The notes below the pieces were generated by a model. It had not been told where the DNA came from. It worked only from the letters and a program-made list of their open reading frames with translations, and did not search any database. This document shows, in pieces, positions 1-22,426 of a stretch of 33,900 bases of DNA; the first letter of the stretch is position 1; each line of letters starts with the position of its first letter. The translations under genes were made by a program, and so were the position numbers. Origin of the DNA: Rickettsiales bacterium (GTDB taxonomy: Bacteria; Pseudomonadota; Alphaproteobacteria; Rickettsiales; UBA3002); NCBI GenBank assembly GCA_947441895.1, contig CANEUT010000002.1, forward strand, positions 1-33,900, given 5' to 3'.

Positions 1-603
1 AGAATCTATAAGAACGGGGAATCCGCCGAGTGGACATATCTGCGCTGTTGGAAGCCTGACGATGCTGAGAAAATCATGTGGGTCAGAGAAGACAGCGTGC
101 TGGAACAGGTTGCCGATATTTTCAATCACCTCGGGATCAAAAATCCTGAGATGCTTCAGAATGTCGTGGATTACATCAAGGAAACCAACCGCGCTAAAAA
201 GGCGTTTCATAATCAGGAAGTCGGGCAGCTGAAAAAGCAGCATACCGAGATTCAGGACAAACTCGACAGGTTGGTGGATTTACGGCTGGAGGGGGAGATC
301 ACCAAGGAGGAGTTTGAAACCAAGAAGAACCGACTGAAGGATCGGCAGTACGAACTCGACCAATTGATCCTGACGTACGACAAAGCAGACGACCAGTTCA
401 CAAAGACGCTCTGTGCCTTGCTTACCATCGCTTCGGACAGTGATAAAATCTGGTTAGGTTCGACGATTTCGGAAAAACGCGAGTTGCTGAATTTCGTATT
501 TGCGAACCTACAGCTAAAAGGTGCAACCCTTTGTTATGAATTAAGAAAACCATTTGATAAGATGCTCAATCAAGCTGATTGTATCAAATGGCGGAAGCTG
601 TGA
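1..603 (+). CDS. recombinase, C-terminal portion (5' end outside the window); resembles the coiled-coil/C-terminal region of large serine recombinases
   Basis: Frame 1 is open from base 1 (RIYKNGESAEWTYLRCWKPDDAEKI precedes the listed Met at 76) to TGA at 601-603. A charged heptad-like stretch (QLKKQHTEIQDKLDRLVDLRLEGEITKEEFETKKNRLKDRQYELDQL) is followed by an EKRELLNFVFANLQLKG tail. The catalytic domain is not in the window, so the family call rests on resemblance only. The last 15 nt overlap the 3' end of tRNA-Ser. Confidence 0.55.
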   Translation, partial: RIYKNGESAEWTYLRCWKPDDAEKIMWVREDSVLEQVADIFNHLGIKNPEMLQNVVDYIKETNRAKKAFHNQEVGQLKKQHTEIQDKLDRLVDLRLEGEITKEEFETKKNRLKDRQYELDQLILTYDKADDQFTKTLCALLTIASDSDKIWLGSTISEKRELLNFVFANLQLKGATLCYELRKPFDKMLNQADCIKWRKL

Positions 604-678
604 GATTCGAACTCACGGAGGAGTTGCCCCCTCGGCAGTTTTCAAGACTGCTGCCTTAAACCACTCGGCCAAGCTTCC
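589..678 (-). tRNA. tRNA-Ser (anticodon UGA), class II, CCA encoded
   Basis: The reverse complement reads GGAAGCTTGGCCGAGTGGTTTAAGGCAGCAGTCTTGAAAACTGCCGAGGGGGCAACTCCTCCGTGAGTTCGAATCTCACAGCTTCCGCCA. It has acceptor stem GGAAGCT/AGCTTCC and anticodon stem GCAGT/ACTGC around loop CTTGAAA (anticodon TGA). It also has a long variable arm, T arm GTGAG-TTCGAAT-CTCAC and a 3' GCCA. Confidence 0.9.
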
Positions 679-1948: not shown

Positions 1949-2025
<77 letters not shown>

Positions 2026-2184
2026 ACCCATTGATTTCAAGATATCCCAAGAAGTTCCAAAACCCAAATATTTTCATAGGGTTATCCGATATTCGTTGTC
2101 CCACTGATTTCCAGGGTTAACCGGTTTGTACCCTGCTTTTTAGGGTACGGGATAGGGTGCAGCATTGTGGTTCGGAGAATTGGG

Positions 2185-3714: not shown

Positions 3715-3957
3715 ACTGGCTCATCTAAAGATTTTTTGGGTATCGTAGTGATGAAGTTCCCCGTACAACTGCCGCATGTTAGCAATTCGAAGAGTTCCTG
3801 TGTGTGAAGGTTTTGCGACATTTTGGGTTGGGGTGGTGAAAGCAAGCGCCCCCTTATCTCTCATGGCGGGCATACGATGAATGCGTCAGTTTGATGACAA
3901 CTGGTTTGCATTATTTACATGTGGTCTAGGCGTTTTGGCACACAGGGTTTCTTAAAA

Positions 3958-3973
3958 TTGTAACATTTTACAA
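3958..3973. promoter_or_regulatory. palindrome TTGTAA-N4-TTACAA in the divergent control region, candidate operator
   Basis: A perfect 6-bp inverted repeat lies 43 nt upstream of the giant ORF start, inside the 301-bp intergenic region shared with the HD gene. Confidence 0.3.
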
Positions 3974-4015: not shown

Positions 4016-7000
4016 ATGGCTTTGTTTCACGATGTCACTGCTGACTATGTTGAGCGTCCGCGCAAAGCGGCGGATGGGGCCTCTGCGCTACAAATGAGCC
4101 GCGAAGAGTTAAAGCAGCTTCACGAGAGCGGCTTGGGCGTTGCGGATACGGAAACTACCGGTCTCAAATCAGGCGAAAATGGGCTGACGGAACCAGCAGT
4201 CATTCGTGCCATGACGATTGGCGAAATCAAAGCCTACAATCGAGAGGCTAAGCGGCAAGGGTTGCCGGCGGATCAGCGTATTCCCGTGCCGCGCGGTTAT
4301 GCGGATAGCGAGCTACGCCTCATCGCGCTGCAGCATTTTGTGCTGCCAAACCGGCCGATGATCCATGACCGAGAAGACGGTCATGAACTGCCGCGCGGAT
4401 CCTATAACAGCGACCGACAGAAAGCATTTGAGTATGATATTAGTGCCTATGCGCTGGGTGTCACCGGCGCGGAGGTAGTGCGCGAGAAAGGCTATGGACC
4501 GCTGACAGACCTAAAAATTCACGGCAAGAAGGTGGAAACATTGCCGAGCTTTGTACCGCTAATGCAGAGCTTTTTACTGTTTACAGGCAAGTCAGACGTT
4601 GGTCCCAAGCAAGGCGTCGCCTATTTCAATTCTCCCTTTGATATCCCATTCCTGCGCGAATTATTTGTCGACGCGATGGCCTATGATGCAGCAAAGAAAA
4701 ACGAGCATCGCCATCATGAGCGCGCAGTTAATCGGCGTTTGCCGCAGGAGCTTGATATTGATTATCATGCTGAAACCACTACGCCGGAACAGCGCGCAAA
4801 AATCATCACGCACATTAAAAAACGCCTGCTGGATAGCGGAATTGCGCAGGAGAAAATGGCGGAATATTTTGCCCCCGCCCGCTGGCACTGTGTGCTACAA
4901 TCCTACCGCGCAGCTCATCCTGAACTGGCTGGCCATACGCTGGATGGGCTGATGAAAACAGCCGGGCTTGCGGAAGGCGATCGCGGTGCCCACTCGGCGA
5001 TTGAGGATGTGGTACTCACCGCGCGGGGTATGCTGCATCTGCTGGGGGAAGCGAAGCTGGGGCAGAATAATTTACCGGCCATGGGTGAATTACCTGGCAT
5101 GATTTTGCGCCGCAGCCATGGTGCGGGAGCAAGCAGCCACGCCGCTGAGAATGGCCGCGATGTGGTCATCACCCTGCCACATGGTAAAACCCCGCATGCC
5201 AAAGCAGTGGAGCATTGGTTACGCAGCTTTAATCGAGCCAACCCAGCCGACGAGCGGGACCCGGCGCTGAACCCGCACGGCAAGCCATGGTTCAGTCAAT
5301 TCATCGAGAATGAACAGGGTTTAAAAATCGTTGCTTCCGGTGCGGAAAAACGTCCCCTGTTTTTGTCGTTCACCAAACATCTCGGTGTCGCCTCGCATCT
5401 GCTGGATGGACGATACCCATGGCTAACCGCGCTGGAGGCGAACGACAAGCCTGGCACCTACGTGGATGTGACGGTGAATGGCGAGCACCTGCATGACGTG
5501 CCATGGAACATTTTGCGCCGTAATGTGGCTTATCTCGATAAACAACCCGCCAGCGAACGCGTTGAAATGCTGAAATTTCTTCGTGATATTGGAAAAGCCA
5601 CTGACGCACTCGGTGGCGTACTGCTGCGTGAGGAAAATGGCGTTCGTTACCTGCGCCTTTATGGCCATGTGCGCCAGCATGGCACGGTGGATATTCCGTG
5701 GCCTAAAAACGTACATCTCGCGGATGCGCAGAAAATCGTGTTCGACAATCTTGAACAGGCCGTGCGTCTTGGCATTACGCCGCATGCAGTCCGCAGTGAA
5801 TTAATGTCATCAGGCGAGGTCGAGGACGATGGCGTGCAAGACGATGATCATAAGCGCATCGTGGCAGAAAAAAAATATTCTTCCACCACGCTGGATATTA
5901 TTTCACCGCCAGATGGTAGGGCGCACATTCACCGCGAAATAACACCCGCTTTATTTCAGCTTTTTAAGGCGGGTCTGCCGTCGGACGCGCGTCATGGCAG
6001 CTTCAATCGCACGATCGATACGGTGAAATACGGCAAGCACTACACGATTGCGGTGAATAAAGTAACGCACGGATCGGACAGTTTTATTACACTTGATGGG
6101 CCACCGGAGGCCTTCGATGCATTCGTGGCGCGCCAAAAGCCTGATAGAACCTACGAGCCAATAGCAGAAAAACCGACCAATATTCTGACCGATGCAGGAT
6201 GGCTGCTCGACCGATTGCAGAAAACCCCCGGTGTGCCGAAGGATGGGGTTGAGGTAACAGCGAATAACCGCATCATCGTTCACCAGCCGCAAGGCATTAG
6301 TAGTGATGCACTGGCGCTGATGCATCATATTGGCATTCCTCACCGTGCGGCGGAGAAAGAAATCCGCTTTTCCGCCGGTGCACTGATGCAGGATGCCTTC
6401 ACCTGGTCGCTCGATATTTCACGAGCGCTAAAAAATAAAGCCTATGAAAAGGAGATGGGGGCGAATTCCATCGTCCCCAGCATCGTCAAAGGACTAAAAG
6501 ACATGAGCGAGAAGGGCGAAAGCCATAAACGCCTCGACCATGCGAAGTTCGACCCCATGCTGGGGCTACAATTGCATTACAAACCACGCAGTAGTGAGGC
6601 AGCTGAGATTATCCGTATTCCAGTAGATAAGATGCTGGCGCGGACGCTTCCCATTGGTCGTCGCCGCGTGCAACGTGTGTTTGCGCGGCTCATGCATTCT
6701 CCTAAAAAGATCGAATCCGCAAATGAGGAAATGCGTTGGGAGGTTACTTTAACACCGCTGGAACAGACGATGCTTGGCCATGCACTGGCGGAAGTTGGCA
6801 CAAGCGTAACGTGGCGGCATAACGCAAAGGGCGACCCCTGTTTCGTGATTACCGAGAGCGAACTTTCTTCGCGTGGCAACCCAATTTACCTTGCCATGCA
6901 AACGATGTCCGACCAGCTTGCGACACTGACAGAATCAACGGATGTCCCGGAATGGTATTTCAGTGCCCACCCCGAGTTGAATGGTGATCGCATTGCTTTG

Positions 7001-10000
7001 CAGCTACCCGCGCGGCCTCTGTTTGAAGCCTCTGCCGCCCCGGTTTATCAGGGTATTAGAAGTTATTTGCGCCGCATGGAACATGGTGGAGCGGGTGGCG
7101 ACAGCCTTAATAAGGGCCTGTCGCGCATCATGGGTGAGCGCAGCGGCAAAGGTGGATCGGTGCTGAAGCAGTTGGATTACGCGCTGCGTCGCGACTCGGA
7201 TGCCCAGCTTTCGATCCTGCTGAATGTCGTGGAGCAGGAAGCGCCCAAGCTACAGGCGTTACATAAACACACGCTCGATCTGGCGCGCAACATCGCACCT
7301 TCAGACAAACCCAGCCTTAAGCGAGAACTGGCGCTGAATCAGGAGATGCTGAAAGACCGCATCTGGGTGGCACACATCATTGCCGCGTGCGATGCAATGG
7401 CAGAAAAAGAGCCGGCACAGGCTGCGAATTGGATGGAAATTCGCCACAAGGCAACTGGCGTTGCTGATAAAATGGCGATTGCCATCCATGGCGCAGACCG
7501 ACTACGCGAGGCGCTGAATACCGGCGCACACACCATCGCTAATGACGGCTCACATTGGCGCAGTAGCCTTGTGGGCGCGAGTGTGAATGCACGGCTAGAT
7601 ATACTGGAGAAAGTGTATATTGAGGCAGCGCAAACGCATACACCGAATCTGGTGGAGAAATACGTCGAGAAGCAGCGCGCAACGCTGGAGCAGTTTGGCA
7701 TGCAGCAAGAGGATAAGCTGGCGGGGCTGTTGCACCCCTACCATGCGCATGCGGCGCTGCGCCTTGCCGTGCTGCATACGGTGGAACGTGATCCGCAGCG
7801 TAAACATCTGCTCGCACGCGCAGCAACCGTTGCGCTAAAAGACGCCTATGGCTTTGCACCCGATAAATCCGCTGAGTTTTTAAGGCTCTACGAAACGATC
7901 GCCGATCCGGCATCCAATCCCGCGCAATGCAAGCAAGCGGGCGAGGTGTTTGTTGCTGGTATTCCAAGTTTCAACGAAGATGCCTATTGGCTGCCGATGC
8001 AATTGTTCGGCAAGGCGAAAGAAGGCGATCTGACTAAATCCCAGCGCGCAGAGCTACCTGCTATCATCGCCAAAGAGGTAAAAAAAGCGTATCATGAGGT
8101 AGGGCTAGCGCATCTCTACCTCGCGGCGGAAATGGCGGCGGAGCTGGAGATCGTGCGCAAAGAATTAGCGCACAAAAAACCTCGGCAGGCAAAGAATGCA
8201 GGCGTGCGCGAGAAGACATTGGAAATCGGATTGCAGCACCAGAAATCCGAAATGCTGCGCTGTTATGCAGCAAGCGGCTTTAGCACGAAGAACGCGGAAG
8301 CTGAGTTACGTGGAAAAACCCGCGCTGCCATCGAAAAACGTCCGGATTTCCTTTTACAGATGAAGAAGCATAAGGAATTTTTAAAACTTCGTGAGAATCA
8401 ACCGAAGCTGGTGGAATATAATGCCAAGCAGCAGGAAGCTATTTTGCGCGCCGCCATTACACAGGAAGGTGGGCAGAAGCGGCTGGAAGAATTTTATCAG
8501 CATAAACTGGTAGAGGAAACATCCCTTGCCAAGCAGGTGCGGGCCGTTGCTGTCAACCACCCGGATTTTGAAGCATCGCGCGCACAGGTAAATAAAGCGG
8601 CTATTCTTACAGCTAAAAATCACATGGTGGCCGAGCTGGATGATCTGGGCAAAATCGAATATCACACACGGCGCGATTTAGAGGCACTTGGGCTACTGTT
8701 GCAAGATATGGCAGTGAAGCTGCATCCCCAACTCGAAGCCACGCCAATTAAGCCGCAGCGGATGGATTTGCCCGAATTTCAGGGCTTGGCCAAGAACCCA
8801 ATTCCTGAACTCCGCGCGGCGGCGGAAAAACTCGATCGCCTGTCGTTGCACCAAGCGAAGGCAAAAATCAGCCCGAGTGAGCAGGTAACAAAGGAGGAAT
8901 ATAAGCAGCGTAGGATTTATCATTCGCTTGGCGCACTGGTAAATAAACCAGTCGACCATGTGTTGGGTGGCGCCGCTGGACCCTTGTCCCAACAAATCGA
9001 TAGCATAAAAAATACCATACCGGATTATTTCGTGCTCGATACCAGCGCGATTATTGGCTATTTCGACGTGCTACGCCATGATACCGCTCGCCCTCGTGAC
9101 ACACACGGCACGAAGCCGGATTTTGTTGGTTATCACGGCAATTTGCTGCGCCGATTGCAGGCGCTCGCTATGCCACAAGCCCATGGCACCATGCCATTGC
9201 GCATCCCCGATTATGTATTTTATGAACTCAGCGGCCTCATGCCACCAATGCTGCAAAGTGCAACAAAACATTTTGCCGCGATTGAGAAAAGTTATGCCCC
9301 GAAGCTGGAAAAAGCCCGGGGCACACGGCATGAAACATTGTTGCGCGATAAAGCCCGTGAATATCAGACGAAAATCGATGATCTCGTCGATTGGTCCATT
9401 CGCCTCGATCGGCGTCGACCACTGGATCTTAAAAGCAGCATTGGCGACCGGGTGGAGGAGTTGAATCAGCTTTTTACCATCTTCGCTTACCACCCCGAGG
9501 TGATGCTGCCCACAAAAGTTGGTACCGATTTCCAACAAAGCGCACGGGTGGAAAGTGCCGTCGTCGCGGGCATTGGGATGATCAATCGTCCGGTGACGCC
9601 CACTTATTATCGTGATGAAATAGCCAAACTAAGGATCGCTATCGCTGCGGATAAAGCTCAGCTGAAAGCAAAGCCATCCCTTGCCAATTACACGCTTTCC
9701 TTCAACGATCTGCTACAAACACCTGGGCTTGATTTTGATATCAAGCATCTGCGCATCCATTGGGGGCAGATGTATTTCATGGGGCTGATTGACGAGCATC
9801 AATATCGTAATTTCATGCGCAACATAAGCGGTGCAAAAGAAGCCAATGAACAGGGGCACGACAATAACTCGCGCTTTGTCACTTATGGCAGTCTTGTGAA
9901 CCGTACGAAGGAAACGGGGCTGACAGGATCAGGGCTGGTGAACGCAGTGAGAAATGCCCGATCTGCGCAAGTACAGGATGGCTCAAAGGAAGAAATGGTA

Positions 10001-11518
10001 AATCGTCGCAATTTAACATTTAATGAGTTGGAACGTTTTGTGCCAAAGCCTGAGCTTGATCTCGCACATGCTATAGGGCCAGCCAAGCTAACGATGGATC
10101 AGTGCATTTTTGGTGGGTTGCTACCCGGTGCCGCAATCAAACGTCACCGCGAAGGCGACGAACATATCGTGCGCGAAAACGATGCCGAGGTCGAAACATT
10201 GCGTCTCATGGCGCGCACGCTAGGCTATACGCCGCCGGAGATCATCACGAGTGGGAAAGACCGTTATGAAACCTTAAGAAATTCCCTCAAGCATCAGGGA
10301 TTTTTCGAGCGGCAGGTAACGCTGGAGGATTGTATCCGACTGCAGACAGCCTGTACTCAGGCTGATATTCCTTGCGCGAAGCTTGACCAAATCCTCGAGC
10401 ATTTACCTACGCTTTTATGCGAAAAACCAAAAAATTTGGTACAAAAAAAATTGAACGATGGCAGCGTGGACATTTCTGCGCCGTTGGAGCGTATTTTTAC
10501 TAACGCGCTTGTGCATGGGGCCCTAAGCCCGGCTCAATTCGTGGCGTTATTAGTGAAGCTTGACCCTACATCGCTCAATGTCGATCACGTGCCCATGTGC
10601 AGCATTAAGGCAGGAGGTCTCACCTTACAATTCAAACTGCGCAAACCCATAGCGCGCACCAGCACGATGCCAGCCGATCAGCTGGCAGCGGCGATTGATC
10701 CGACGACCCTTTGGTTAGAGATTCCAGACGTTTCAGCGCCACATTTTGACAGGCGGCAGAATTTCAGCGATCTGGTTAATGTTGGTCGCCACGCCCGACG
10801 TAGTGGTGCCAATTTCAGTGAAGGGCAGGCATTACTTGACCGCCTGCTGGCAGATAAATTCCGCTCCGGTGAAGCTGCACCGCAGCAGCGGCTGGTAACG
10901 GCACATGCCGCGTTCACTGAACTGTTTGGCCCTACTGAAGGTGATGCGCTATTTTTCCAGCAAATGAAGGATTTTGAATCGCGGCAGGAGCGAGGGTTCC
11001 AATCCGGCGACCATGTATCTTCCACTAAAAAACCTTCGGATTGCGCTATTGCCGCTAACCACCGCAACCGACTGATTGATCGGCGCAACAAAGGCGAAGT
11101 TTCTGTGGTAGAGGGCACGCGCAACGCGCAACGCAATGAACCGGAGGCGAAATTATGGGTCATCGGCAATGATAGCGACCTGGTGTCGGCCGAACAATAT
11201 CGCTTGCTCGCCCCGGAAACAAAAATAGCTAAAAATGGGCGTGAAAAAACGCAGGATCCCATAACGCTTGGTAAAAAGTGCGAAAGCCCAGGCATTCGTC
11301 TGCGGCCACCCGTGGCGGCGCAGCATTCGCGGTTGGTGGAGGCGCAGGGCCCAGCTTCGCAGGACGATGTGAACATCCATAACGTGCCCACCCGCGATTG
11401 GCTGGAATATGTTGGGCGTTTGAATGACATATCACCCACCGCTAAGCGGAACCCCGATGATTTTACCCATAAATACGCGAAGGCCAGTGTACCTTTCCGT
11501 ACAAAGTTTTTAGGTTAG
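4016..11518 (+). CDS. giant multidomain protein (2500 aa): N-terminal DEDDh 3'-5' exonuclease-like module, long mostly helical/charged middle, PIN-like motifs towards the C-terminus; function unknown
   Basis: A single uninterrupted 7.5-kb ORF with AGGTAGGGA 7 nt upstream of the ATG. The DEDDh motifs are ExoI GVADTETTGL (D44, E46; nt 4145-4153), ExoII YFNSPFDIPFL (D209; nt 4640-4642) and ExoIII GAHSAIEDVVL (H326, D331; nt 4991-5008). PIN-like strings are FVLDTSAII (D1675), IPDYVFYELSG (E1737) and KGEVSVVEG...WVIGNDSDL (D2386, D2388). No Walker A motif was found by eye. Confidence 0.85.
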   Translation: MALFHDVTADYVERPRKAADGASALQMSREELKQLHESGLGVADTETTGLKSGENGLTEPAVIRAMTIGEIKAYNREAKRQGLPADQRIPVPRGYADSELRLIALQHFVLPNRPMIHDREDGHELPRGSYNSDRQKAFEYDISAYALGVTGAEVVREKGYGPLTDLKIHGKKVETLPSFVPLMQSFLLFTGKSDVGPKQGVAYFNSPFDIPFLRELFVDAMAYDAAKKNEHRHHERAVNRRLPQELDIDYHAETTTPEQRAKIITHIKKRLLDSGIAQEKMAEYFAPARWHCVLQSYRAAHPELAGHTLDGLMKTAGLAEGDRGAHSAIEDVVLTARGMLHLLGEAKLGQNNLPAMGELPGMILRRSHGAGASSHAAENGRDVVITLPHGKTPHAKAVEHWLRSFNRANPADERDPALNPHGKPWFSQFIENEQGLKIVASGAEKRPLFLSFTKHLGVASHLLDGRYPWLTALEANDKPGTYVDVTVNGEHLHDVPWNILRRNVAYLDKQPASERVEMLKFLRDIGKATDALGGVLLREENGVRYLRLYGHVRQHGTVDIPWPKNVHLADAQKIVFDNLEQAVRLGITPHAVRSELMSSGEVEDDGVQDDDHKRIVAEKKYSSTTLDIISPPDGRAHIHREITPALFQLFKAGLPSDARHGSFNRTIDTVKYGKHYTIAVNKVTHGSDSFITLDGPPEAFDAFVARQKPDRTYEPIAEKPTNILTDAGWLLDRLQKTPGVPKDGVEVTANNRIIVHQPQGISSDALALMHHIGIPHRAAEKEIRFSAGALMQDAFTWSLDISRALKNKAYEKEMGANSIVPSIVKGLKDMSEKGESHKRLDHAKFDPMLGLQLHYKPRSSEAAEIIRIPVDKMLARTLPIGRRRVQRVFARLMHSPKKIESANEEMRWEVTLTPLEQTMLGHALAEVGTSVTWRHNAKGDPCFVITESELSSRGNPIYLAMQTMSDQLATLTESTDVPEWYFSAHPELNGDRIALQLPARPLFEASAAPVYQGIRSYLRRMEHGGAGGDSLNKGLSRIMGERSGKGGSVLKQLDYALRRDSDAQLSILLNVVEQEAPKLQALHKHTLDLARNIAPSDKPSLKRELALNQEMLKDRIWVAHIIAACDAMAEKEPAQAANWMEIRHKATGVADKMAIAIHGADRLREALNTGAHTIANDGSHWRSSLVGASVNARLDILEKVYIEAAQTHTPNLVEKYVEKQRATLEQFGMQQEDKLAGLLHPYHAHAALRLAVLHTVERDPQRKHLLARAATVALKDAYGFAPDKSAEFLRLYETIADPASNPAQCKQAGEVFVAGIPSFNEDAYWLPMQLFGKAKEGDLTKSQRAELPAIIAKEVKKAYHEVGLAHLYLAAEMAAELEIVRKELAHKKPRQAKNAGVREKTLEIGLQHQKSEMLRCYAASGFSTKNAEAELRGKTRAAIEKRPDFLLQMKKHKEFLKLRENQPKLVEYNAKQQEAILRAAITQEGGQKRLEEFYQHKLVEETSLAKQVRAVAVNHPDFEASRAQVNKAAILTAKNHMVAELDDLGKIEYHTRRDLEALGLLLQDMAVKLHPQLEATPIKPQRMDLPEFQGLAKNPIPELRAAAEKLDRLSLHQAKAKISPSEQVTKEEYKQRRIYHSLGALVNKPVDHVLGGAAGPLSQQIDSIKNTIPDYFVLDTSAIIGYFDVLRHDTARPRDTHGTKPDFVGYHGNLLRRLQALAMPQAHGTMPLRIPDYVFYELSGLMPPMLQSATKHFAAIEKSYAPKLEKARGTRHETLLRDKAREYQTKIDDLVDWSIRLDRRRPLDLKSSIGDRVEELNQLFTIFAYHPEVMLPTKVGTDFQQSARVESAVVAGIGMINRPVTPTYYRDEIAKLRIAIAADKAQLKAKPSLANYTLSFNDLLQTPGLDFDIKHLRIHWGQMYFMGLIDEHQYRNFMRNISGAKEANEQGHDNNSRFVTYGSLVNRTKETGLTGSGLVNAVRNARSAQVQDGSKEEMVNRRNLTFNELERFVPKPELDLAHAIGPAKLTMDQCIFGGLLPGAAIKRHREGDEHIVRENDAEVETLRLMARTLGYTPPEIITSGKDRYETLRNSLKHQGFFERQVTLEDCIRLQTACTQADIPCAKLDQILEHLPTLLCEKPKNLVQKKLNDGSVDISAPLERIFTNALVHGALSPAQFVALLVKLDPTSLNVDHVPMCSIKAGGLTLQFKLRKPIARTSTMPADQLAAAIDPTTLWLEIPDVSAPHFDRRQNFSDLVNVGRHARRSGANFSEGQALLDRLLADKFRSGEAAPQQRLVTAHAAFTELFGPTEGDALFFQQMKDFESRQERGFQSGDHVSSTKKPSDCAIAANHRNRLIDRRNKGEVSVVEGTRNAQRNEPEAKLWVIGNDSDLVSAEQYRLLAPETKIAKNGREKTQDPITLGKKCESPGIRLRPPVAAQHSRLVEAQGPASQDDVNIHNVPTRDWLEYVGRLNDISPTAKRNPDDFTHKYAKASVPFRTKFLG

Positions 11519-13820: not shown

Positions 13821-13844
13821 CAAATCTGGCCCCCGCAACCAACC
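13821..13844 (+). repeat. attR-like core of island 1 / attL of the mini-island: second copy of the 24-bp repeat
   Basis: Identical to 2005-2028. Confidence 0.9.
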
Positions 13845-14031
13845 ATACTATTCGCGGCCATTCGCCCGCGTTCGAAAAACCCAAAAAATATTTATATTTA
13901 CAGAAGCTTACGCCTCAAACTCGTTCGTCTGTGGTCGTAATGGTGCGGCTGCAGCCAACCATTTTGAGGGTATATTTGTGGGTACAAACCACAGGTACCC
14001 AGATGAGGTATCTCATGACGGAGTCAGTCTG

Positions 14032-14088
14032 ATGCCACGCATGAATCGCAAGCTGACAGATATTGAGATAGCTATCATTTACACCTAG
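14032..14088 (+). pseudogene. possible remnant of a tyrosine-integrase N-terminus (17 codons)
   Basis: It translates to MPRMNRKLTDIEIAIIYT*. The KLTD-EI string resembles the start of the arm-binding domain of P4-type integrases (..LTDxEIK..). It sits where an int gene is expected, about 190 nt inside the att core and in the same orientation as the tRNA. It is very short, so this is only suggestive. Confidence 0.3.
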
Positions 14089-14154
14089 ATGGATTAGCTT
14101 TTTCTCTTGCGCTCTCTGTGCAAAAAATTGATAAAATATACAGGGGGGTGTGAT

Positions 14155-15204
14155 ATGCTAGAAGCCGAGTTGCCACAGAATGAGAATGAACGCCTTGATC
14201 TTTTGTATGGCTTAAATATTCTTGATACCCCAGTCGAGGAACGATTTGATCGTATTACTCGCCTCGTATGTAATATTTTAGATGTTCCTATTGCTGCCAT
14301 TTCATTGGTTGACGAACATCGGCAATGGTTCAAGTCCATACAGGGTTTAAAAGCTACTGAAACTGAGCGCCGCGTTGCATTTTGCGCTCATGCTATCCTC
14401 GATGAAGGATTAATGCTTGTTTCTGATGCTACAAAAGATGTGCGATTTTTAGATAATCCGCTGGTAACGGGTGACCCCAATATTCGTTTTTATGCAGGTC
14501 AGCCACTTTCTTTAGTGCCGAATATGCGTTTGGGAACCCTATGCGCTATTGATTCAAAAACGCGTGAGTTGACAAAACGTGAAGCGGACATCATGCGCGA
14601 TTTAGGACGCATGGTTGAGTCTGAGCTGCAGCTGTTATTTTTAGCCAGTTCTCAAAGAAAGCGCATCGTTTCATTTGAAAACGTAGAGCTTGATATGATG
14701 GTTGATCCCGTGACCCGTCTATGGAGCCGGAAGGGAACTTTAGAAATGCTTGAGCGTGAGTGGGATTGGGCTTGCGATGGAGGAGAGGACATCGCCTTTG
14801 CATGTGTAGGTTTATACCAGCTCACCAATGATATGAAACCAGAAGAGAGCTATCGGTTTGATGAAGCGATTACCGTGGCTTCACAAACCATTTCACGTGC
14901 ATTGGGTGTAAATGACTTAATTGGTCGTTGGAGTGATAACCAATTCATCCTCGTATTTCATGGCTATGGCGCGACTGGACTGAATCATATGATGCAGTCG
15001 ATTCAAAAAGAGCTCGAATGCCCATTTTTCCTGGAAGATGGCACTTCTGTATCATTAAAAATACGTGCTGGTGCTTTTGGTATGACTGCAAATAAAGAAG
15101 ATCGGGTTGAACGGTTAACATTGATGATGAATCAGGAGTATGAAAAAACAAGTCTTGAAATGTTACCAATTAGCGTAAATCACGCCAGTATAGTTTGGCG
15201 CTGA
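14155..15204 (+). CDS. GAF-domain protein with degenerate (probably inactive) GGDEF domain
   Basis: The N-terminal ENERLDLLYGLNILDTPVEERFDRITRL...HRQWFKS...FCAHAI is typical of a GAF sensor. The C-terminal domain has the GGDEF fold context (DPVTRLWSRKG...) but the signature reads RWSDNQF instead of GGDEF/GGEEF. ATG 14155 is preferred (CAGGGGGG 6 nt upstream) over the TTG at 14107. Confidence 0.75.
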   Translation: MLEAELPQNENERLDLLYGLNILDTPVEERFDRITRLVCNILDVPIAAISLVDEHRQWFKSIQGLKATETERRVAFCAHAILDEGLMLVSDATKDVRFLDNPLVTGDPNIRFYAGQPLSLVPNMRLGTLCAIDSKTRELTKREADIMRDLGRMVESELQLLFLASSQRKRIVSFENVELDMMVDPVTRLWSRKGTLEMLEREWDWACDGGEDIAFACVGLYQLTNDMKPEESYRFDEAITVASQTISRALGVNDLIGRWSDNQFILVFHGYGATGLNHMMQSIQKELECPFFLEDGTSVSLKIRAGAFGMTANKEDRVERLTLMMNQEYEKTSLEMLPISVNHASIVWR

Positions 15205-15236
15205 AATGCCTGTTCCGTTTTAATGGATCGGCATTT
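15204..15236 (+). terminator. possible intrinsic terminator after the GAF-GGDEF gene
   Basis: AAATGCC (15204-15210) pairs with GGCATTT (15230-15236), with an inner TCC/GGA pairing. The T-rich 3' stem runs into TTTGT. It overlaps the last base of the stop codon. Confidence 0.4.
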
Positions 15237-15327
15237 GTAAACAGGTTGTCTGGCCCAGCCTTAATTGGGGCGCCCAGTTTTCAGTTAGCAGTGTAAAATG
15301 GGCTAGCTTGGCGGTAACGTTTCAGCT

Positions 15328-15349
15328 AAATCGCGCACCCGCAACCAAC
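15328..15349 (+). repeat. third, degenerate copy of the tRNA-fMet 3'-end repeat
   Basis: AAATCGCGCACCCGCAACCAAC versus AAATCTGGCCCCCGCAACCAAC is 19 of 22 identical. Confidence 0.6.
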
Positions 15350-15372: not shown

Positions 15373-15888
15373 TTAATGCGACTGAATGGAGCGGGTGACG
15401 ACTCCCCAAATGGTAACGCCGGTTTCCGAATCAATAGGAATTTCGTTGAAAGCCGGATTAGCGGGCATAAGAAAAGCTTTGTTCTTTTTAACGATGAGGT
15501 ATTTCACGGTGATGGAACCATCCACCGCGGCGACGACGATTTTGCCGTGGGTGGGCTTCATTCGGCGGTTTACCACCAGCAGCGTGCCATCGGGGATGCC
15601 AGCATCGATCATGGAATCACCAGTGGCATAGGCGAGGAAGGTTTCTTCCGGATCATCCACCAGATAGCTATGCAGGTCGATATGTTCGTCTACCTGATCA
15701 TCGGCGGGCATGGGCATGCCGGCTTGCACACGGCTGGAATAAAGCGGTAACTTAATGCCGCGATTGGCAGCAAATTGTTTAATTTCATTCACCATGCTGG
15801 CGGGGACGCGAATGCGCTCAGTCACCTCACCATAGGTGCCTTTGCCTTTGGGTCTGCCAGCACCTTTTCGTACGCCACCGCGTGCCAT
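15373..15888 (-). CDS. S24-family LexA/UmuD-like autopeptidase with short basic N-terminal region
   Basis: 171 aa. There is a candidate Ala-Gly cleavage site (RVQAG/MPMP), Ser nucleophile context ATGDSMIDAGI and Lys context SITVKYL. The N-terminus is MARGGVRKGAGRPKGKG followed by a short strand-helix-like segment. No umuC/dinB gene is adjacent. Confidence 0.8.
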   Translation of the reverse strand: MARGGVRKGAGRPKGKGTYGEVTERIRVPASMVNEIKQFAANRGIKLPLYSSRVQAGMPMPADDQVDEHIDLHSYLVDDPEETFLAYATGDSMIDAGIPDGTLLVVNRRMKPTHGKIVVAAVDGSITVKYLIVKKNKAFLMPANPAFNEIPIDSETGVTIWGVVTRSIQSH

Positions 15889-16062: not shown

Positions 16063-17478
16063 ATGTCATTTAAATCGTCGCTGAAAATGTTGCTGACCGT
16101 TGCTGTGGTGTCGCTGGGCAGTGGCGGCGCGATGGCGAATACGGCGGGTGTCTTTCCCCAGAATGACGTGCTGAACTATCTGGAGCACGTGGTGCAGTGG
16201 CAGCGTGAAGCGTCCGTCATTGAGCCGGCCAACCATGCCCCGCGTGAGCTCATGTTTCAAGATACGGTGCGCCAGAATGCGCTGCGCGGTTTACGCGCCG
16301 GATTTAAATTTGCGCGGGCGCAAGCGTCCATCGCTCCGGCCGAGATGCTGACTGAGAACGGCGAGGCGAACCCCGCCCAACGCATGGTGCAACATGGCCG
16401 CGAGAACGATAAAAACATTGCGCAATTGCAAGCGCAGTTACGTGGTAAAATTTCAGCCGCCCAGCGTCAGCAATTGGAAGACAAACTGAAGCTTGCCCTA
16501 GCCCAACAAGATTTATTGGAAACGGTGCAGGCCAATTTTAATGCGGCGGCCAGTGGCGGTGGCGCAAGCTTTTCTGCCAAAATTGGCAATTTGCAACGCG
16601 GCATTCCGGCCATGCTCAGCGATGCCGACCCCGCCGAAGCGCAAGACCATAGCGCGGCTGCGCCGTTGGTTGCACTATCAAACAGCCTGTTCGGATTATC
16701 GGCCCAGCTGTTTGAACTCGCCCGCAAGCAGCGCGAGCTGCAAGCCTTTATGGCCAACACCGACGCGGTGGAGACGGTGGGGCGTGACATGCTGGCCAGC
16801 CTGCGCACCACACTGGATGATATCACGACATCGCAAACGGCCACCGCCGATGCGCGTGTGGCGGATTTTAAACAAGTCTCCACCGTGGTTGCACCACTGG
16901 CGGAAGCGAATGTGTGGATTAGCACCAGCAAAACCGCGCTGAAAGACTGGAATGAAACACTGGGCAACCAATTTACAAGCGTGCTGAAACAGTTTGCTGT
17001 GGCGCTTGGGTTGCTGCTGGCCATGCTGGCGGTGCCGCTGGTGCTGAGCGAAGTAGCCGCCCGTATGATTGCGCGTTATGTAAGCGACTCCAAACGGCAA
17101 CGGCAAGCGAACATGGCACGTCGCATAATGGTGGGGGTGGCGGTGGTGTTTGTGTTGCTGTTGCATTTCATCAGTGACTTTAGTTCCGTGGTGACCTTTG
17201 CCGGATTTATTACGGCAGGTTTAGCGGTGGCGTTGCAAGGCGTGTTGTTATCGTTGGTGGCGCATTTTCTGTTCTATGGTCGCTATGGTGTGCGCGCCGG
17301 TGACCGGGTGAATGTGGCTGGTGTTACCGGCGATATTGTACAGATTGGCATGGTGCGGTTTTATCTGCGCGAGCTGCACAGTAATGCTGAAGGCGTGCTT
17401 GAGCCAACGGGCAAGGTGGTGGCCTTCCCCAACTCCATTTTATTTCAGCCATCGGCCTTTTATAAATATGTTGGCTAG
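16063..17478 (+). CDS. mechanosensitive ion channel (MscS) family protein with signal peptide and coiled-coil periplasmic region
   Basis: 471 aa. The order is a signal-like N-terminus, a Gln/Ala-rich helical region, several TM segments, and then the MscS beta-domain signature GDRVNVAGVTGDIVQIGMVRFYLREL...VVAFPNS. Confidence 0.7.
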   Translation: MSFKSSLKMLLTVAVVSLGSGGAMANTAGVFPQNDVLNYLEHVVQWQREASVIEPANHAPRELMFQDTVRQNALRGLRAGFKFARAQASIAPAEMLTENGEANPAQRMVQHGRENDKNIAQLQAQLRGKISAAQRQQLEDKLKLALAQQDLLETVQANFNAAASGGGASFSAKIGNLQRGIPAMLSDADPAEAQDHSAAAPLVALSNSLFGLSAQLFELARKQRELQAFMANTDAVETVGRDMLASLRTTLDDITTSQTATADARVADFKQVSTVVAPLAEANVWISTSKTALKDWNETLGNQFTSVLKQFAVALGLLLAMLAVPLVLSEVAARMIARYVSDSKRQRQANMARRIMVGVAVVFVLLLHFISDFSSVVTFAGFITAGLAVALQGVLLSLVAHFLFYGRYGVRAGDRVNVAGVTGDIVQIGMVRFYLRELHSNAEGVLEPTGKVVAFPNSILFQPSAFYKYVG

Positions 17479-18317
17479 GGTTTTTGAATGATCACATCGC
17501 TGGGCAAAAACTCATCGACCGCAAGGGCGGGCAGGGCGCTCACTTCCTCATAATAAGGGGTGAAGTCGGGCCGGGTGCTTTCCAGTAATTGCTCGAAACT
17601 ATCGATGACAAAATAATGATGCTGATATTGGTCAATGCGATATTTCTGGCGCATGATGCGCTTCACATCATAGCCCACATGAATGGCTTCCGGGCTGAGC
17701 GAAAAAACCGATTCGCCGGGTGATGACGCAATGCCCGCGCCATAAATGCGGCGGCCCTCGGGTGTGTTAATCAGCCCAAATTCAATGGTGAACCAATAGA
17801 GCGCTTCTAAATGGCCCACATGGCCAAGCTGCTGGGCTTTCAGCCCGCCCGCGCCAAAAGCCTGACTATAATCAGCAAATAGCGGGTTCGCGAGCATGCT
17901 GACATGGCCGAACATCTCGTGAAAAATATCGGGTTCCTCCAGATAATCCACCTCATGCGGCTGGCGAATGAAGGCGGTGACAGGGAATTTACGCGCGGCG
18001 AGCAAGGCGAAAAAGGCTTCCACGGGAACAAGGCCCGGCACACAAACCAACTGCCAGCCTGTTGTTTTCATTAGTTTCTCGCTCACGCGATCAAAGTTTG
18101 GAATGCCGTCGGAGTTATCAAAATCGAGCAGCTTGATGCCTTCCAGATATTCTTTGCAGGCGCGGTTGGCCAGAATGGGCATGTTGCGCGCATAGAGATG
18201 GTGCCACATCGCGTGATCGGCTGCGGTGAATTGTTCCCACTTAAAATCAATCGTCATATCATCATGCACGTGGCTGTAATCGCCGCGCAGCTGGCCATGA
18301 TCTTCTTTTAGTGACAT
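17475..18317 (-). CDS. phhA: phenylalanine 4-hydroxylase
   Basis: 280 aa. It carries the aromatic amino acid hydroxylase core: PDIFHEMFGHVSML (2-His iron ligands), YWFTIEFGL and IYGAGIASSPGE. Confidence 0.9.
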   Translation of the reverse strand: MSLKEDHGQLRGDYSHVHDDMTIDFKWEQFTAADHAMWHHLYARNMPILANRACKEYLEGIKLLDFDNSDGIPNFDRVSEKLMKTTGWQLVCVPGLVPVEAFFALLAARKFPVTAFIRQPHEVDYLEEPDIFHEMFGHVSMLANPLFADYSQAFGAGGLKAQQLGHVGHLEALYWFTIEFGLINTPEGRRIYGAGIASSPGESVFSLSPEAIHVGYDVKRIMRQKYRIDQYQHHYFVIDSFEQLLESTRPDFTPYYEEVSALPALAVDEFLPSDVIIQKP

Positions 18318-18430
18318 ATGCTCTCCATCATTTCAGGTGAGTCTAGCCCTTTCGCAGTTGCGTGGCTAGGCCTTGCCAGTGCGTTGCACCATGGCTATGG
18401 TGGCGTCCTGTCCTTTAAAAGGAGTATCAT

Positions 18431-19537
18431 ATGCAAGCCGCAACCACTGCACTCATTGAACCCACCATCAACCCCATGGGCACCGATGGATTTGAATTCG
18501 TTGAATATGCCGCGACCGACCCCTCGGAGCTGGAAGCGCTGTTCACCAAGCTTGGCTTCAGCAAAATTGCCAAACATCGTTCGAAGAATGTGTATCTCTG
18601 GCGTCAGGGCGATATTAATTTCATTTTGAATGGTCAGCCCGGCAGTCAGGCGGAGGACTTCTTCAACGCGCATGGCCCATCGGCCAATGCCATGGCCTTC
18701 CGCGTGAAAGATGCGGCGAAAGCCATCGCCCGCGCGCGCGAACTGGGCGCAAAAGTCATTGAAAGCAAAGTGGGCCCCATGGAGCTGAACGTGCCCGCCA
18801 TTGAAGGTATTGGTGGCAGTTTGCTTTACCTTGTTGATCGCTATGGCGAGCAGTCGATTTATGACATCGATTTCGTGCCGCTGCCGGGCGTTGACCAGCA
18901 CCCCAAAGGCAATGGCCTGACGTATATTGATCACCTGACGCATAATGTCAGCCGTGGTAATATGGATAAATGGGCCCAGTTTTATGAGCATTTGTTTAAC
19001 TTCCGTGAGATTCGTTATTTCGATATCGAAGGTCACCTGACCGGCCTTAAAAGCAAAGCCATGACCAGCCCCTGCGGCAAAATTCGTATTCCCATCAACG
19101 AATCATCGGATGATAAATCGCAGATTGAAGAATTTCTGCGCCAATATAAGGGCGAGGGCATTCAGCACATTGCGCTGGGCACCGATGATATTTATGCGAC
19201 GGTTGAAAGCCTGAAGCAAAAGCAGATCATCTTCATGGATGCACCACCCGAAACCTATTATGATGGGCTGGCCAAGCGCCTGCCATGGCACTGCGAAGAC
19301 GTGGCGCGCCTCAAGCGCAACGGCATTTTAATGGATGGTGCGCCAGGCACCACTGAAGGCGCAGAGGATGGTGGCATTCTGCTGCAAATTTTCACCAGCA
19401 CCGTTATCGGCCCCATATTTTATGAGGTGATTCAGCGCAAAGGTGATGAAGGGTTTGGTGAAGGTAATTTCCGCGCGCTGTTTGTGTCGATTGAAGAAGA
19501 CCAAATTAAACGCGGCGTGTTGCAACCGAAAGGCTAA
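18431..19537 (+). CDS. hppD: 4-hydroxyphenylpyruvate dioxygenase
   Basis: 368 aa and collinear with Pseudomonas/Legionella-type HppD: [82 protein letters not shown] lies 8 nt upstream of the ATG. Confidence 0.93.
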
Positions 19538-19540
19538 GCG

Positions 19541-20689
19541 ATGAAAAAATATATAAGCTTTCCACGCGTCGCTGGCGTTTCATCACGTCAGGCGCATTGC
19601 GATTTGCCCGAGGGAACGTTCGAGCGTGAATTTGGCCGCGAGGGTTTTTTCGGCCCCACCACGCATTTGCATCATGCTCATAAACCCACCGGATGGATTC
19701 ACTGGGAAGGCGATTTGCTGCCGCGCGCGTTCGACTTGAACAAGCTGCCACAGCCCGTTTCCAGCCCATGGCATGCCACGCCGCTGTTTCACAATTCCAC
19801 CTGCAGCATGCGCTATTGGTGGCTGCGTGGAGCCATGGATCATTTGGTGACCAATGCTGATGGTGATGAGCTGCTGTTCATTCACGAAGGTCGTGGTGAT
19901 TTGTTCTGCGACTTTGGGCATCTGGCGTTTAAAGCGGGCGATTACATCACCATGCCGCGCGGCGCGAAGTGGCGAATCACGGCAGAAAGTGACGCAAAAA
20001 TTCTCCTCATCGAATCGAAATACGATGGTTATCGCCTGCCAGAAAAAGGCTTAGTGGGTGATCATGCGATTTTTGATGCGGCCATGCTCGACGTGCCAGA
20101 ATTGAACGAAGCCTATAAAGACCAGATGGATGAAAAAGAGTGGAAAGTGGTTATGCGCAGCCGCGGCAAATTCACTACCGTCACCTATCCGTTTAACCCG
20201 CTCGATGTGGTGGGCTGGCATGGCGATAATTTGCCGGTGCGCATTAACTGGCGCGATATTCGACCGCTGATGAGCCACCGCTATCACCTTGCACCATCGG
20301 CCCACACCACGTTTGTGGGCAATCGCTTTGTGGTGTGCACCTTTGTGCCACGCCCCGCCGAGATGGATCCGGGTGCGCTAAAAGTTCCGTTCTATCATTC
20401 GAACAATGATTTTGATGAGATTATTTTCTATCACCTCGGTCAGTTTTTCAGCCGCGATAATATTCACCCCGGCATGATTACTTTGCACCCCGCGGGCTTT
20501 GCTCACGGGCCGCATCCCAAAGCGTTCAAGCTGGCTGCCGAGGCCGACAAAAACCGCAAACCCACCGACCCCGCAAAAATACTCGATGAGGTGGCGGTGA
20601 TGATTGATACGCGTGAGGCGGTAGAAATTGCTAGTGAGACCGCTGAATTCGAAGATAAAAACTATGCCATGTCATGGAAGGAATCGTAA
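19541..20689 (+). CDS. hmgA: homogentisate 1,2-dioxygenase (short, about 380-aa type)
   Basis: 382 aa with cupin-type HGO motifs: FYHSNNDFDEIIFYHLGQFFSRD and ITLHPAGFAHGPHPKAF. It sits directly after hppD (3-nt gap) and before the FAH-family and maiA genes. Confidence 0.8.
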   Translation: MKKYISFPRVAGVSSRQAHCDLPEGTFEREFGREGFFGPTTHLHHAHKPTGWIHWEGDLLPRAFDLNKLPQPVSSPWHATPLFHNSTCSMRYWWLRGAMDHLVTNADGDELLFIHEGRGDLFCDFGHLAFKAGDYITMPRGAKWRITAESDAKILLIESKYDGYRLPEKGLVGDHAIFDAAMLDVPELNEAYKDQMDEKEWKVVMRSRGKFTTVTYPFNPLDVVGWHGDNLPVRINWRDIRPLMSHRYHLAPSAHTTFVGNRFVVCTFVPRPAEMDPGALKVPFYHSNNDFDEIIFYHLGQFFSRDNIHPGMITLHPAGFAHGPHPKAFKLAAEADKNRKPTDPAKILDEVAVMIDTREAVEIASETAEFEDKNYAMSWKES

Positions 20690-20690
20690 A

Positions 20691-20760
20691 TGTCATCCTG
20701 AACGAATGTGAAGGATCTCAAGCCGCATGATCAAGATTCTTCGCGTTGCTCAGAATGACA
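20691..20760. repeat. imperfect 25-26-bp inverted repeat (REP/MITE-like hairpin) between hmgA and the FAH gene
   Basis: The left arm is TGTCATCCTGAACGAATGTGAAGGAT (20691-20716). The reverse complement of the right arm (20736-20760) is TGTCATTCTGAGCAACGCGAAGAAT. The TGTCATyCTGArC...GAAGrAT arms resemble a palindromic intergenic repeat family seen in various bacteria. Confidence 0.55.
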
Positions 20761-20782
20761 TAAAACTGCAAAGGAGAAAAAC

Positions 20783-21784: not shown

Positions 21785-22426
21785 ATGAAGCTCTATAGCT
21801 ATTTTCAATCCAGCGCGTCGTATCGCGTGCGTATTGCACTGAACCTGAAGGGGCTTGCGCCGGAAATGCTGCCGGTGAATCTGGTCGCTGCCGCTCAGCG
21901 TGATGCGGCGTATGCCGCCGTAAATCCGCAAATGATGGTGCCGAGTTTAGATGTGGGGGGCAATGTCATCACCCAGTCGCTCGCCATCATGGAATATCTG
22001 GAGGAGGCGCATCCGAGTCCGCCGCTGCTGCCGAAAGACGCCATCACCCGCGCGCATGTGCGGGCATTCGCGCTGGCCATTGCCACCGATATTGCGCCGC
22101 TGGGTAATTTAAAAATCCGTAAATACCTCACCACCGGCTTTGGCATTCCCGAAGATGAGGTGAAGGTGAAATGGTTGCAGCATTGGATTGCCGATGGGCT
22201 GGCCGCGCTTGAGAAGCTGCTCGTTGCCTCGCCACACACCGGCACCTATTGCTTCGGCGATTCACCCACCATGGCTGATTGTTGCCTTATTCCGCAATTA
22301 TTCGTCGCGCGCCGGTTCGAGGTCAATCTTGCTCCATTCCCAACCATTGCCCGCATTGCTGCCACCTGTGAAGCGCACCCCGCATTCATGGCTGCACACC
22401 CCAGCAAACAGGCCGATGCAGCCTAG
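21785..22426 (+). CDS. maiA: maleylacetoacetate isomerase (zeta-class GST)
   Basis: 213 aa. The N-terminal YFQSSASYRVRIALNLKG is zeta-class SSxSxRVRIAL-like. The ATG immediately follows the upstream TAA. Confidence 0.85.
   Translation: MKLYSYFQSSASYRVRIALNLKGLAPEMLPVNLVAAAQRDAAYAAVNPQMMVPSLDVGGNVITQSLAIMEYLEEAHPSPPLLPKDAITRAHVRAFALAIATDIAPLGNLKIRKYLTTGFGIPEDEVKVKWLQHWIADGLAALEKLLVASPHTGTYCFGDSPTMADCCLIPQLFVARRFEVNLAPFPTIARIAATCEAHPAFMAAHPSKQADAA

Follow-up and report, generated by a model that had tools for sequence, protein, structure and literature searches.

Gene content of the locus

The 33,900-nt stretch of DNA analysed here (contig CANEUT010000002.1 of assembly GCA_947441895.1, Rickettsiales bacterium; referred to as the window) contains, next to an initiator tRNA-Met gene, a giant open reading frame (ORF) which is flanked upstream by the gene of an orphan protein with an HD motif (HD-like) and downstream by the gene of a RecJ-like exonuclease (Table 1). 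Together, they form a previously undescribed cassette of nuclease-like genes, the domains of which belong to known superfamilies. Neither the architecture nor the cassette nor its islet context was found in PADLOC, Pfam, NCBIfam or the searchable literature. Two parts are distinguished in the giant protein: the large N-terminal giantN, headed by a DnaQ-like DEDDh exonuclease domain, and the C-module with PIN-like motifs. Homologous proteins and loci are designated by P and L numbers, respectively.

Table 1. Features of the cassette and its boundaries in the window
Feature	Position (nt)	Strand	Basis or remark
tRNA-Met (CAT), initiator type	1949..2025	+	ARAGORN, Rfam; C1:A72 mismatch
Left direct-repeat copy (3' part of tRNA-Met)	2005-2028	+	repeat search
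Orphan protein with YfbR-like HD motif, 509 aa	2185..3714	-	H113, H154-D155, E158; divergent from giant ORF
Giant ORF, 2500 aa, ATG start	4016..11518	+	fusion of giantN (aa 1-~1660) and C-module (aa ~1661-2500)
DnaQ-like DEDDh 3'-5' exonuclease domain, aa ~38-345, carrying two insertions	4127..5050	+	Pfam, PADLOC, PHROG, invariant residues
Exo I	4145-4162	+	DTETTG
Exo II	4628-4654	+	NSPFDIPFL
Exo III	4991-5008	+	HSAIED
Conserved mixed alpha/beta region, aa ~346-830	5051..6505	+	present in all homologues; AlphaFold pLDDT 70-89
Fast-evolving, helix-favouring region, aa ~831-1660, and linker to C-module	6506..8995	+	composition, low identity
PIN-like N-terminal half, aa ~1668-1750	9017..9265	+	strand 1 with D1675, strand 2 with D1732, then E1737
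Stretch of ~585 aa separating the PIN-like motif blocks, aa ~1751-2334	9266..11017	+	no known fold matched
Putative PIN-like C-terminal half, aa ~2335-2400	11018..11215	+	G2360-E2361, E2366, WVIGND(2386)SD(2388)L; motif only
Divergent RecJ-like DHH/DHHA1 exonuclease, 741 aa	11525..13750	+	starts 7 nt past stop codon of giant ORF
Right direct-repeat copy, 24 nt, CAAATCTGGCCCCCGCAACCAACC	13821..13844	+	24/24 nt identical to 2005-2028

The original prediction for this region had described a single unbroken 7.5-kb reading frame, an expanded DEDDh exonuclease head, about 1300 aa of unassignable sequence and an apparently split PIN-like module. The frame was verified, and the quoted motifs all lie where they had been placed: DTETTG at residues 44-49, NSPFDIPFL at 205-213, HSAIED at 326-331, FVLDTSAII at 1672-1680, IPDYVFYELSG at 1730-1740, KGEVSVVEG at 2359-2367 and KLWVIGNDSDL at 2379-2389. 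An assembly artefact is excluded because the fused form recurs in three other independent assemblies, i.e., in P0002 (63 % identity; JGI/NCBI), P0003 (56 %; Logan) and the fragment P0010. Likewise as predicted, the giant protein is devoid of NTPase, helicase, methylase, HNH and GIY-YIG domains: a regular expression detected no Walker A motif, and Pfam searches with the whole protein and with six tiles yielded no match to any of these families. In possessing neither a P-loop nor a helicase domain, it is unlike those giant defence proteins that are centred on an ATPase or helicase.

The exonuclease head and the body of giantN

The N-terminal region was recognized by three domain collections. Pfam RNase_T (PF00929; gathering score 24) scored 28.9 bits with a tile comprising residues 1-420 and 21.4 bits with the full-length giant protein, and matched five of nine homologues (best 3.8e-8); further matches were obtained to the PADLOC Cas-associated DEDDh model (2.3e-9) and to PHROG_192 'DNA polymerase exonuclease subunit' (4e-11). 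All three DEDDh motifs are intact, since D44, E46, D209, H326 and D331 are present and conserved. These five residues are invariant in six database homologues as well as in a nine-sequence set including loci-derived proteins of only 20-22 % identity; none of these homologues carries a substitution that would indicate a dead domain. Alignment thus shows giantN to possess a predicted DnaQ-type DEDDh active site that is intact. The spacing of the motifs had been noted as roughly double the canonical one, and gaps of 165 and 117 aa were indeed measured. Because the catalytic span from D44 to D331 comprises 288 aa as compared to the 164 positions of the RNase_T model, the two large insertions proposed for the exonuclease fold are real; about 31 aa of the first one are missing from P0005 and P0006 in the alignment of six homologues.

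With exonucleases of the DnaQ/Pol III epsilon type (PF00929), including Cas-associated DEDDh domains, the head has Exo I (DxETTG), Exo II (NxPFDxxFL) and Exo III (HSAxxD) in common. In contrast to these, it contains two family-specific insertions and is joined to a body of over 1300 aa that could not be assigned, and no polymerase, Cas or theta-subunit context was found.

All homologues align through to about residue 800-840 of the giant protein, i.e., across the conserved mixed alpha/beta region behind the head. Structural comparisons were based on AlphaFold2 models of residues 1-850 and 1661-2500, each of which is confident only in parts. The former has a mean pLDDT of 59, with the exonuclease domain (residues 1-345) at 25-50, and Foldseek retrieved nothing for it at E<0.001 from PDB and BFVD; this includes residues ~346-830, for which Pfam yielded no match either. 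HMMER searches against PDB sequences with the N-terminal tile and the profiles A2, A6, A7 and A8 gave no relevant match. The subsequent region (residues ~831-1660) shares only 8-20 % identity with distant homologues and matched no sequence family (Pfam tiles, HMMER against PDB sequences). Its predicted Lys/Glu/Ala/Gln-rich character was borne out by composition, as A, E, L, K, Q, R and M account for 54-65 % of residues 1100-1600, which is consistent with helical sequence. The roughly 1300 aa regarded as unassignable remain so, with no significant family match at the sequence level and no fold match for the model of residues 1-850. Overall, no sequence family was significantly matched by about 2000 of the 2500 residues of the giant protein.

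A fusion of two normally separate subunits

In L001, the opposite strand encodes a separate protein of 829 aa, with which residues 1661-2500 of the giant protein align from end to end (45 % identity); an 832-aa protein of L002 aligns with them at 21 % identity. The gene for giantN (1670-1910 aa, forward strand) converges on that for the C-module (725-835 aa, reverse strand) in L001, L002, L005, L007/L025, L009 and L011. In L024, the two genes are separate and non-adjacent, the order being C-module (917 aa, reverse), RecJ-like, HD-like and giantN (forward). An exhaustive HMMER search with the C-module profile against 1.84 billion representative proteins retrieved only 37 proteins; next to a few short fragments, these are mostly full-length proteins of ~660-920 aa which stand alone, and only P0003 and P0010 are fused.

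To judge from these alignments, the giant ORF is a recent fusion of two normally separate subunits. The earlier view of one giant protein holds in so far as a single ORF exists in the window; it does not hold for the ancestral state. Since the genes are separate and convergent in most relatives and fused in few, the fusion arose by inversion and joining within one subclade. In the sense of a Rosetta stone, the joining of subunits which most relatives encode separately implies that the products of giantN and C-module act together. Such a fusion represents direct genetic evidence for cooperation of the exonuclease and the PIN-like subunit and shows which proteins to co-express.

The C-module as a candidate interrupted PIN domain

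The PIN core carries its catalytic residues behind strand 1, in the helix that follows strand 2, at the N-terminus of helix 4 and behind strand 4 (PMC5499597). The order of these positions in VapC-like PIN domains (PF01850; Matelska et al. 2017) is matched in the C-module by the candidate residues D1675 (D/E behind a hydrophobic strand), E1737 (in a helix that follows a second strand), E2361 (where a helix begins) and hhhhxND(2386)xD(2388) (behind a strand). Both PIN-like motif blocks belong to one evolutionary unit: they mark the two ends of a protein of ~830 aa, which most relatives encode separately. Across 29 sequences, G2360, E2361 and D2386 are invariant (module numbering G700, E701 and D726), D1732, E1737 and E2366 are nearly so (module D72, E77 and E706), and the position of D1675 in the first strand is occupied by either D or E throughout. 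The acidic residues picked earlier from the PIN-like strings are therefore invariant or nearly invariant, and D1732 and E2361 are to be added to them.

The ~585 aa between the motif blocks were removed in silico, and 26 spliced sequences as well as consensus designs were searched. Splicing raised the number of PIN matches from 1 out of 29 to several, all of them sub-threshold and driven by the N-terminal half. The spliced family consensus reached 18-19.7 bits with Pfam PIN PF01850 (E 0.0013-0.0043), below the gathering score of 23.6; no PIN family was matched significantly by the C-module, this being the best score. The PF01850 matches cover profile positions 2-48 to 2-74 of 120 and always start at position 1-2. 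Among the 26 spliced sequences, PIN-clan matches were to PIN (3), PIN_3 (1) and PIN_4 (1), stemming from at most four distinct members, one of which (AQQY...) matches both PIN and PIN_3. PIN was the only family matched by more than two spliced members, a recurrence that is unlikely to be due to chance.

Profile searches against PDB with the C-module found no PIN domain. Comparison with a VapC alignment was not significant by hhalign (probability 0.1) or by hmmsearch; this alignment was built from eight plasmid VapC genes and is narrow, so that the null result does not refute a PIN domain. The non-significant hhalign result placed D1675 and E1737 on D7 and E42 of VapC. Of the predicted split PIN domain, the N-terminal half is thus backed by weak, sub-threshold Pfam PIN matches, and the C-terminal half by its invariant motifs, with no support from Pfam, PDB or hhalign; a single significant PIN match was not obtained. 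The AlphaFold2 model of the C-module (840 aa, 6-sequence alignment) has a mean pLDDT of 57, with values below 50 at module residues 1-23, 39-41, 59-86 and 666-840, and of 52-55 over residues 24-58. Residues ~370-660 are mostly at 65-92, apart from two blocks at 48 and 56. The inner segment found no sequence match in Pfam or PDB, and Foldseek with the C-module model retrieved nothing at E<0.001 from PDB.

Several features set the C-module apart from VapC-like proteins. Its second and third catalytic positions are ~585-620 aa apart, whereas PIN domains average ~130 aa; the conserved D1732 ending strand 2 is a FEN-like feature; and an antitoxin partner as in VapC systems is lacking. A PIN fold interrupted by ~585-620 aa is plausible for the C-module on grounds of residue conservation and motif order, with the putative C-terminal half corresponding to PIN helix 4 and strand 4 as assigned by motif.

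Partner genes of the cassette

The RecJ-like protein matched Pfam DHH (1.5e-15), DHHA1 (5e-10) and RecJ_OB (0.016), and its best PDB matches are RecJ structures (8e-37); it missed the equivalog cutoff of TIGR00644 (272.8 versus 396.9 bits). Going by these scores, it is RecJ-like and no certified RecJ orthologue. DHH and DHHA1 domains with RecJ-type motifs are shared with bacterial RecJ (TIGR00644). Different from the latter, the cassette protein has an extra segment between the two domains, and its gene lies inside a repeat-bounded islet. This segment (residues ~345-450) is Lys/Glu-rich and interrupts the alignment to TIGR00644, which falls into two parts. Wherever enough flanking sequence is available, giantN has a RecJ-like gene as companion (the window, the P0002 contig, L001, L002, L005, L009, L011, L013, L024 and L026), and the linkage persists despite differing gene order and orientation.

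Orthologues of the 509-aa HD-like protein are encoded adjacently in L001 (52 % identity) and L005 (44 %), and divergent copies in L013 and L024; the copy in L013 is a 474-aa gene representing a divergent paralogue. H113, H154-D155 and E158 are invariant in five sequences. In PDB, the profile of this family found YfbR (2paq), a 5'-deoxynucleotidase, as its top match at a marginal E of 0.016, and neither Pfam nor NCBIfam yielded a match for the protein. The H...HDxxE residues align with H33, H68-D69 and E72 of YfbR, while the HD-like protein is 2.5 times longer and has a conserved C-terminal half of no assigned nature.

In two loci only, an ~850-aa DEAH/RHA-type helicase adjoins giantN, on opposite sides (L023:4160-6718 and L026:9629-12178, both on the forward strand; 63 % identical to each other). 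Its best PDB matches are Prp43, HrpB and DHX8. The gene order is helicase, giantN in L023 and RecJ-like, three small genes, giantN, helicase in L026; a C-module was not detected within the available DNA of either locus. These two loci look like a helicase-partner variant of the cassette.

Combinations of DEDD exonucleases with PIN-like nucleases are known from MUT-7/EXD3 (DEDDy and Mut7-C), from DNA polymerase I (FEN-like 5' nuclease and DEDDy) and from the exosome, which combines Rrp6 with the PIN domain of Rrp44 and the helicase Mtr4. The cassette resembles them in joining a 3'-5' DEDD exonuclease to a PIN-like module, and some of its relatives add an SF2 helicase. No Mut7-C, FEN or RNB match was obtained with the giant protein in Pfam, and domain order and size differ; the likeness is one of logic only, at most on the superfamily level.

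An islet at the initiator tRNA-Met gene

Direct repeats of the tRNA-Met 3' end bound the cassette in two distant lineages, and no recombinase is encoded between them. In the window, no genes other than the giant ORF and its HD-like and RecJ-like neighbours lie within the repeat pair. In L024, whose giantN is 28 % identical to that of the window, a 15-16-nt core of tRNA-Met occurs at the tRNA (22635), at 15839 and at 3209, and segment 3224-15839 corresponds exactly to the genes for C-module, RecJ-like protein, HD-like protein and giantN. L023 has a tRNA-Met 4.4 kb upstream and a 54-nt repeat. Recombinase domains are absent from all ORFs of the bounded segments (Pfam and PHROG among the searches), and tblastn with a XerC-type recombinase found nothing in the available DNA. 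A 401-aa ORF at 30921-32126 was considered as an integrase and rejected, since it encodes an FAD oxidoreductase.

Direct repeats of a tRNA 3' end and tandem islets are also characteristic of tRNA-targeted islands and of integrase-less, cis-mobilisable islets. Unlike for integrase-bearing tRNA islands, no integrase was found in the islet or the available DNA, and repeats were seen in two loci only. If the inference drawn from the repeats holds, the cassette is, or was in the past, a mobile islet of the initiator tRNA gene that lacks a recombinase of its own.

The same site is occupied by further islets. In the window, a degenerate third repeat copy (15327-15349) closes a second islet (13845-15349), which holds only a gene for a GAF-GGDEF protein (14107-15204; PHROG_14602 match, 1e-54); the 12 nt located on the inner side of repeat copies two and three resemble each other as well. 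L024:15874-22624 represents another integrase-less islet at the same tRNA-Met, with a single orphan ORF of 1886 aa which has a weak ClpP-like match. This ORF was rejected as a giantN paralogue, as no similarity was detected. Inside the cassette islet, at its left end (L024:3250-3340), lies a truncated copy of this ORF which comprises the ribosome-binding site and the ~25 initial codons. A 17-nt exact direct repeat (TTGGTGACGCGGGGTGG) at 1854-1870 and 1942-1958 of the window, the second copy of which overlaps the 5' end of tRNA-Met, further indicates that recombination has occurred at this gene repeatedly.

The cassette could also be a self-contained, integrase-free element that provides its own mobility functions: DEDDh head, RecJ-like exonuclease and PIN/FEN-like module would resect and trim DNA ends, and a circular or linear copy would integrate by annealing its tRNA-Met 3' segment to the chromosomal tRNA gene, which would create the direct repeats seen. 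Such a role would agree with bounded segments which, in two lineages, hold cassette genes only and lack recombinases of both the tyrosine and the serine type, with the lack of integrases in neighbouring islets at the same tRNA, and with the island-side arms shared by the distal repeat copies of tandem islets. However, integrase-less islets can also move in trans via a recombinase encoded elsewhere, most loci show neither repeats nor a tRNA, and no transposase-like or annealing-protein domain was detected. Moreover, unrelated cargo (the GGDEF gene and the 1886-aa orphan) uses the same site, so that site specificity should derive from something other than the cassette. This explanation is considered quite improbable; if true, site-specific integration at the initiator tRNA-Met gene would here follow a novel mechanism.

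Distribution and host

All genome matches are metagenome-assembled genomes labelled 'Rickettsiales bacterium' or other alphaproteobacteria. Two additional word-index searches for homologues added only three proteins. A phage or plasmid origin was rejected, since no match was found in plasmids, phages or IMG/VR viral contigs. Downstream of the islets, the window encodes phenylalanine hydroxylase, HPPD, homogentisate dioxygenase, fumarylacetoacetase and a maleylacetoacetate isomerase-like GST (17475-22426), i.e., a complete set for phenylalanine/tyrosine catabolism. On account of this set, the host is probably a metabolically versatile, free-living bacterium and no reduced endosymbiont.

Host lifestyle bears on the possibility that the giant protein is a secreted nuclease effector or toxin of host-associated bacteria, the neighbouring genes being unrelated or coding for immunity or helper factors. 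Giant orphan proteins equipped with a nuclease domain are a typical form of effector, and the carriers are labelled Rickettsiales. However, these carriers encode a rich free-living metabolism, and the protein does not look exported: because no 19-residue window exceeds 1.6 on the Kyte-Doolittle scale, it has no transmembrane or signal-like hydrophobic stretch, in agreement with the earlier statement that a Sec signal is missing. Trafficking domains (RHS, PAAR, LXG, T4SS signals) were not detected in Pfam, the nuclease is N-terminal with no C-terminal toxin tip, and the conserved partners are cytoplasmic-type enzymes. An effector is the least probable of the explanations considered.

Proposed function

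The explanation preferred here is that of an accessory, island-borne multi-nuclease cassette, perhaps engaged in conflict or defence, to which a probability of about 0.38 is assigned. Its products would form one multi-nuclease complex assembled on the large non-catalytic body of giantN, in which the PIN-like module would make endonucleolytic cuts, the DEDDh head would degrade in 3'->5' and the RecJ-like enzyme in 5'->3' direction, and the HD protein would dephosphorylate the released mononucleotides. A role in conflict with, or defence against, foreign nucleic acid is suggested by the island site, the patchy rarity, the fast divergence and the swapping of partners (PIN-like module or DEAH helicase). 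As to the substrate, similarity to RecJ and DnaQ points to DNA as a candidate, and the DEAH/RHA helicase partner together with the VapC-like PIN register points to RNA.

Several observations weigh against this reading. Flanking repeats were seen in only two loci and are absent from L001, L002, L005, L009 and L011. The PIN and HD assignments are sub-threshold, and both AlphaFold models are poor over the catalytic domains. The window cassette contains no sensor or NTPase, which leaves control of self versus non-self unexplained. PADLOC-DB v2 recognized no described system, the only match being the generic Cas-associated DEDDh domain model, and the C-module, HD-like and RecJ-like proteins had no PADLOC match. 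Finally, the family is confined to one bacterial clade, and identities of 35-66 % for the RecJ-like gene amount to a housekeeping-like rate of divergence.

Because of the latter two points, a vertically inherited core function is the main rival, rated as less probable than the preferred explanation: the cassette would then be a lineage-specific housekeeping machine for DNA repair/recombination or an RNA-decay complex of the degradosome/exosome type, the RecJ-like gene would be the RecJ of the cell, and the tRNA-Met repeats would be incidental traces left by other integrations. The RecJ catalytic domains and OB-domain hint of the RecJ-like protein, its higher identity than that of giantN, as expected of a conserved enzyme, the absence of flanking repeats from five loci and the exosome-like logic of a DEAH/RHA RNA helicase with a 3'-5' exonuclease and PIN fit such a function. 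It is opposed by the location of the RecJ-like gene inside the repeat-bounded segment in both the window and L024, by its score well short of the RecJ equivalog cutoff, by the extreme rarity of the family (37 C-module representatives), and by gene order, orientation and neighbours that differ in every locus (with, e.g., resolvase and HTH proteins near P0002). Even a clade-specific repair or RNA-decay complex would provide a new partner set for RecJ.

If the multi-nuclease reading holds, the cassette would represent an undescribed system which in its commonest form is built without an NTPase, a new architecture within the DEDDh and PIN superfamilies, and possibly a new defence or nucleic-acid turnover system in poorly studied, uncultured alphaproteobacteria.

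Upstream motifs and neighbouring elements

A recurrent TGTCACAC(T)-like motif is located 50-75 nt upstream of giantN in L001, L008, L009, L010, L011, L013 and L023; it also occurs at L026:3350 and 9555 and upstream of some partner genes. Allowing one mismatch, 23 occurrences were counted in 253 kb, about six of them directly in front of cassette genes. In the window, only a weaker version is present (TGGCACACAG, 3936-3945). The motif may act as a promoter or operator. A perfect 16-bp palindrome (TTGTAACATTTTACAA, 3958-3973) is situated 43 nt upstream of the ATG of the giant ORF, within the 300-bp divergent intergenic region, and is not conserved in the other loci. An SOS (LexA) box was rejected as a conserved feature, since GTTC-N7-GTTC was found in no locus and a TGT-N8-ACA palindrome in the window only.

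Left of the tRNA-Met islets, ORF 76-603 represents the C-terminal end of a 501-aa large serine recombinase, which is also encoded at L014:5083-6588 and belongs to a separate element at tRNA-Ser. This element, which lies to the left of the window, is prophage-like (S24 repressor, DnaA_N-like protein, DUF6362). The tRNA-Ser gene (589-678, reverse strand) is followed by several partial copies of its sequence at 629-685, 718-774, 751-784, 830-863 and 992-1025. Beyond the islets on the right, the window encodes a 171-aa protein of the S24 peptidase family (LexA/UmuD-like; 15373-15888, reverse strand) and a 471-aa protein with a weak MscS-like C-terminus (16063-17478, forward strand); 469-aa orphans follow the cassette in the P0002 contig.

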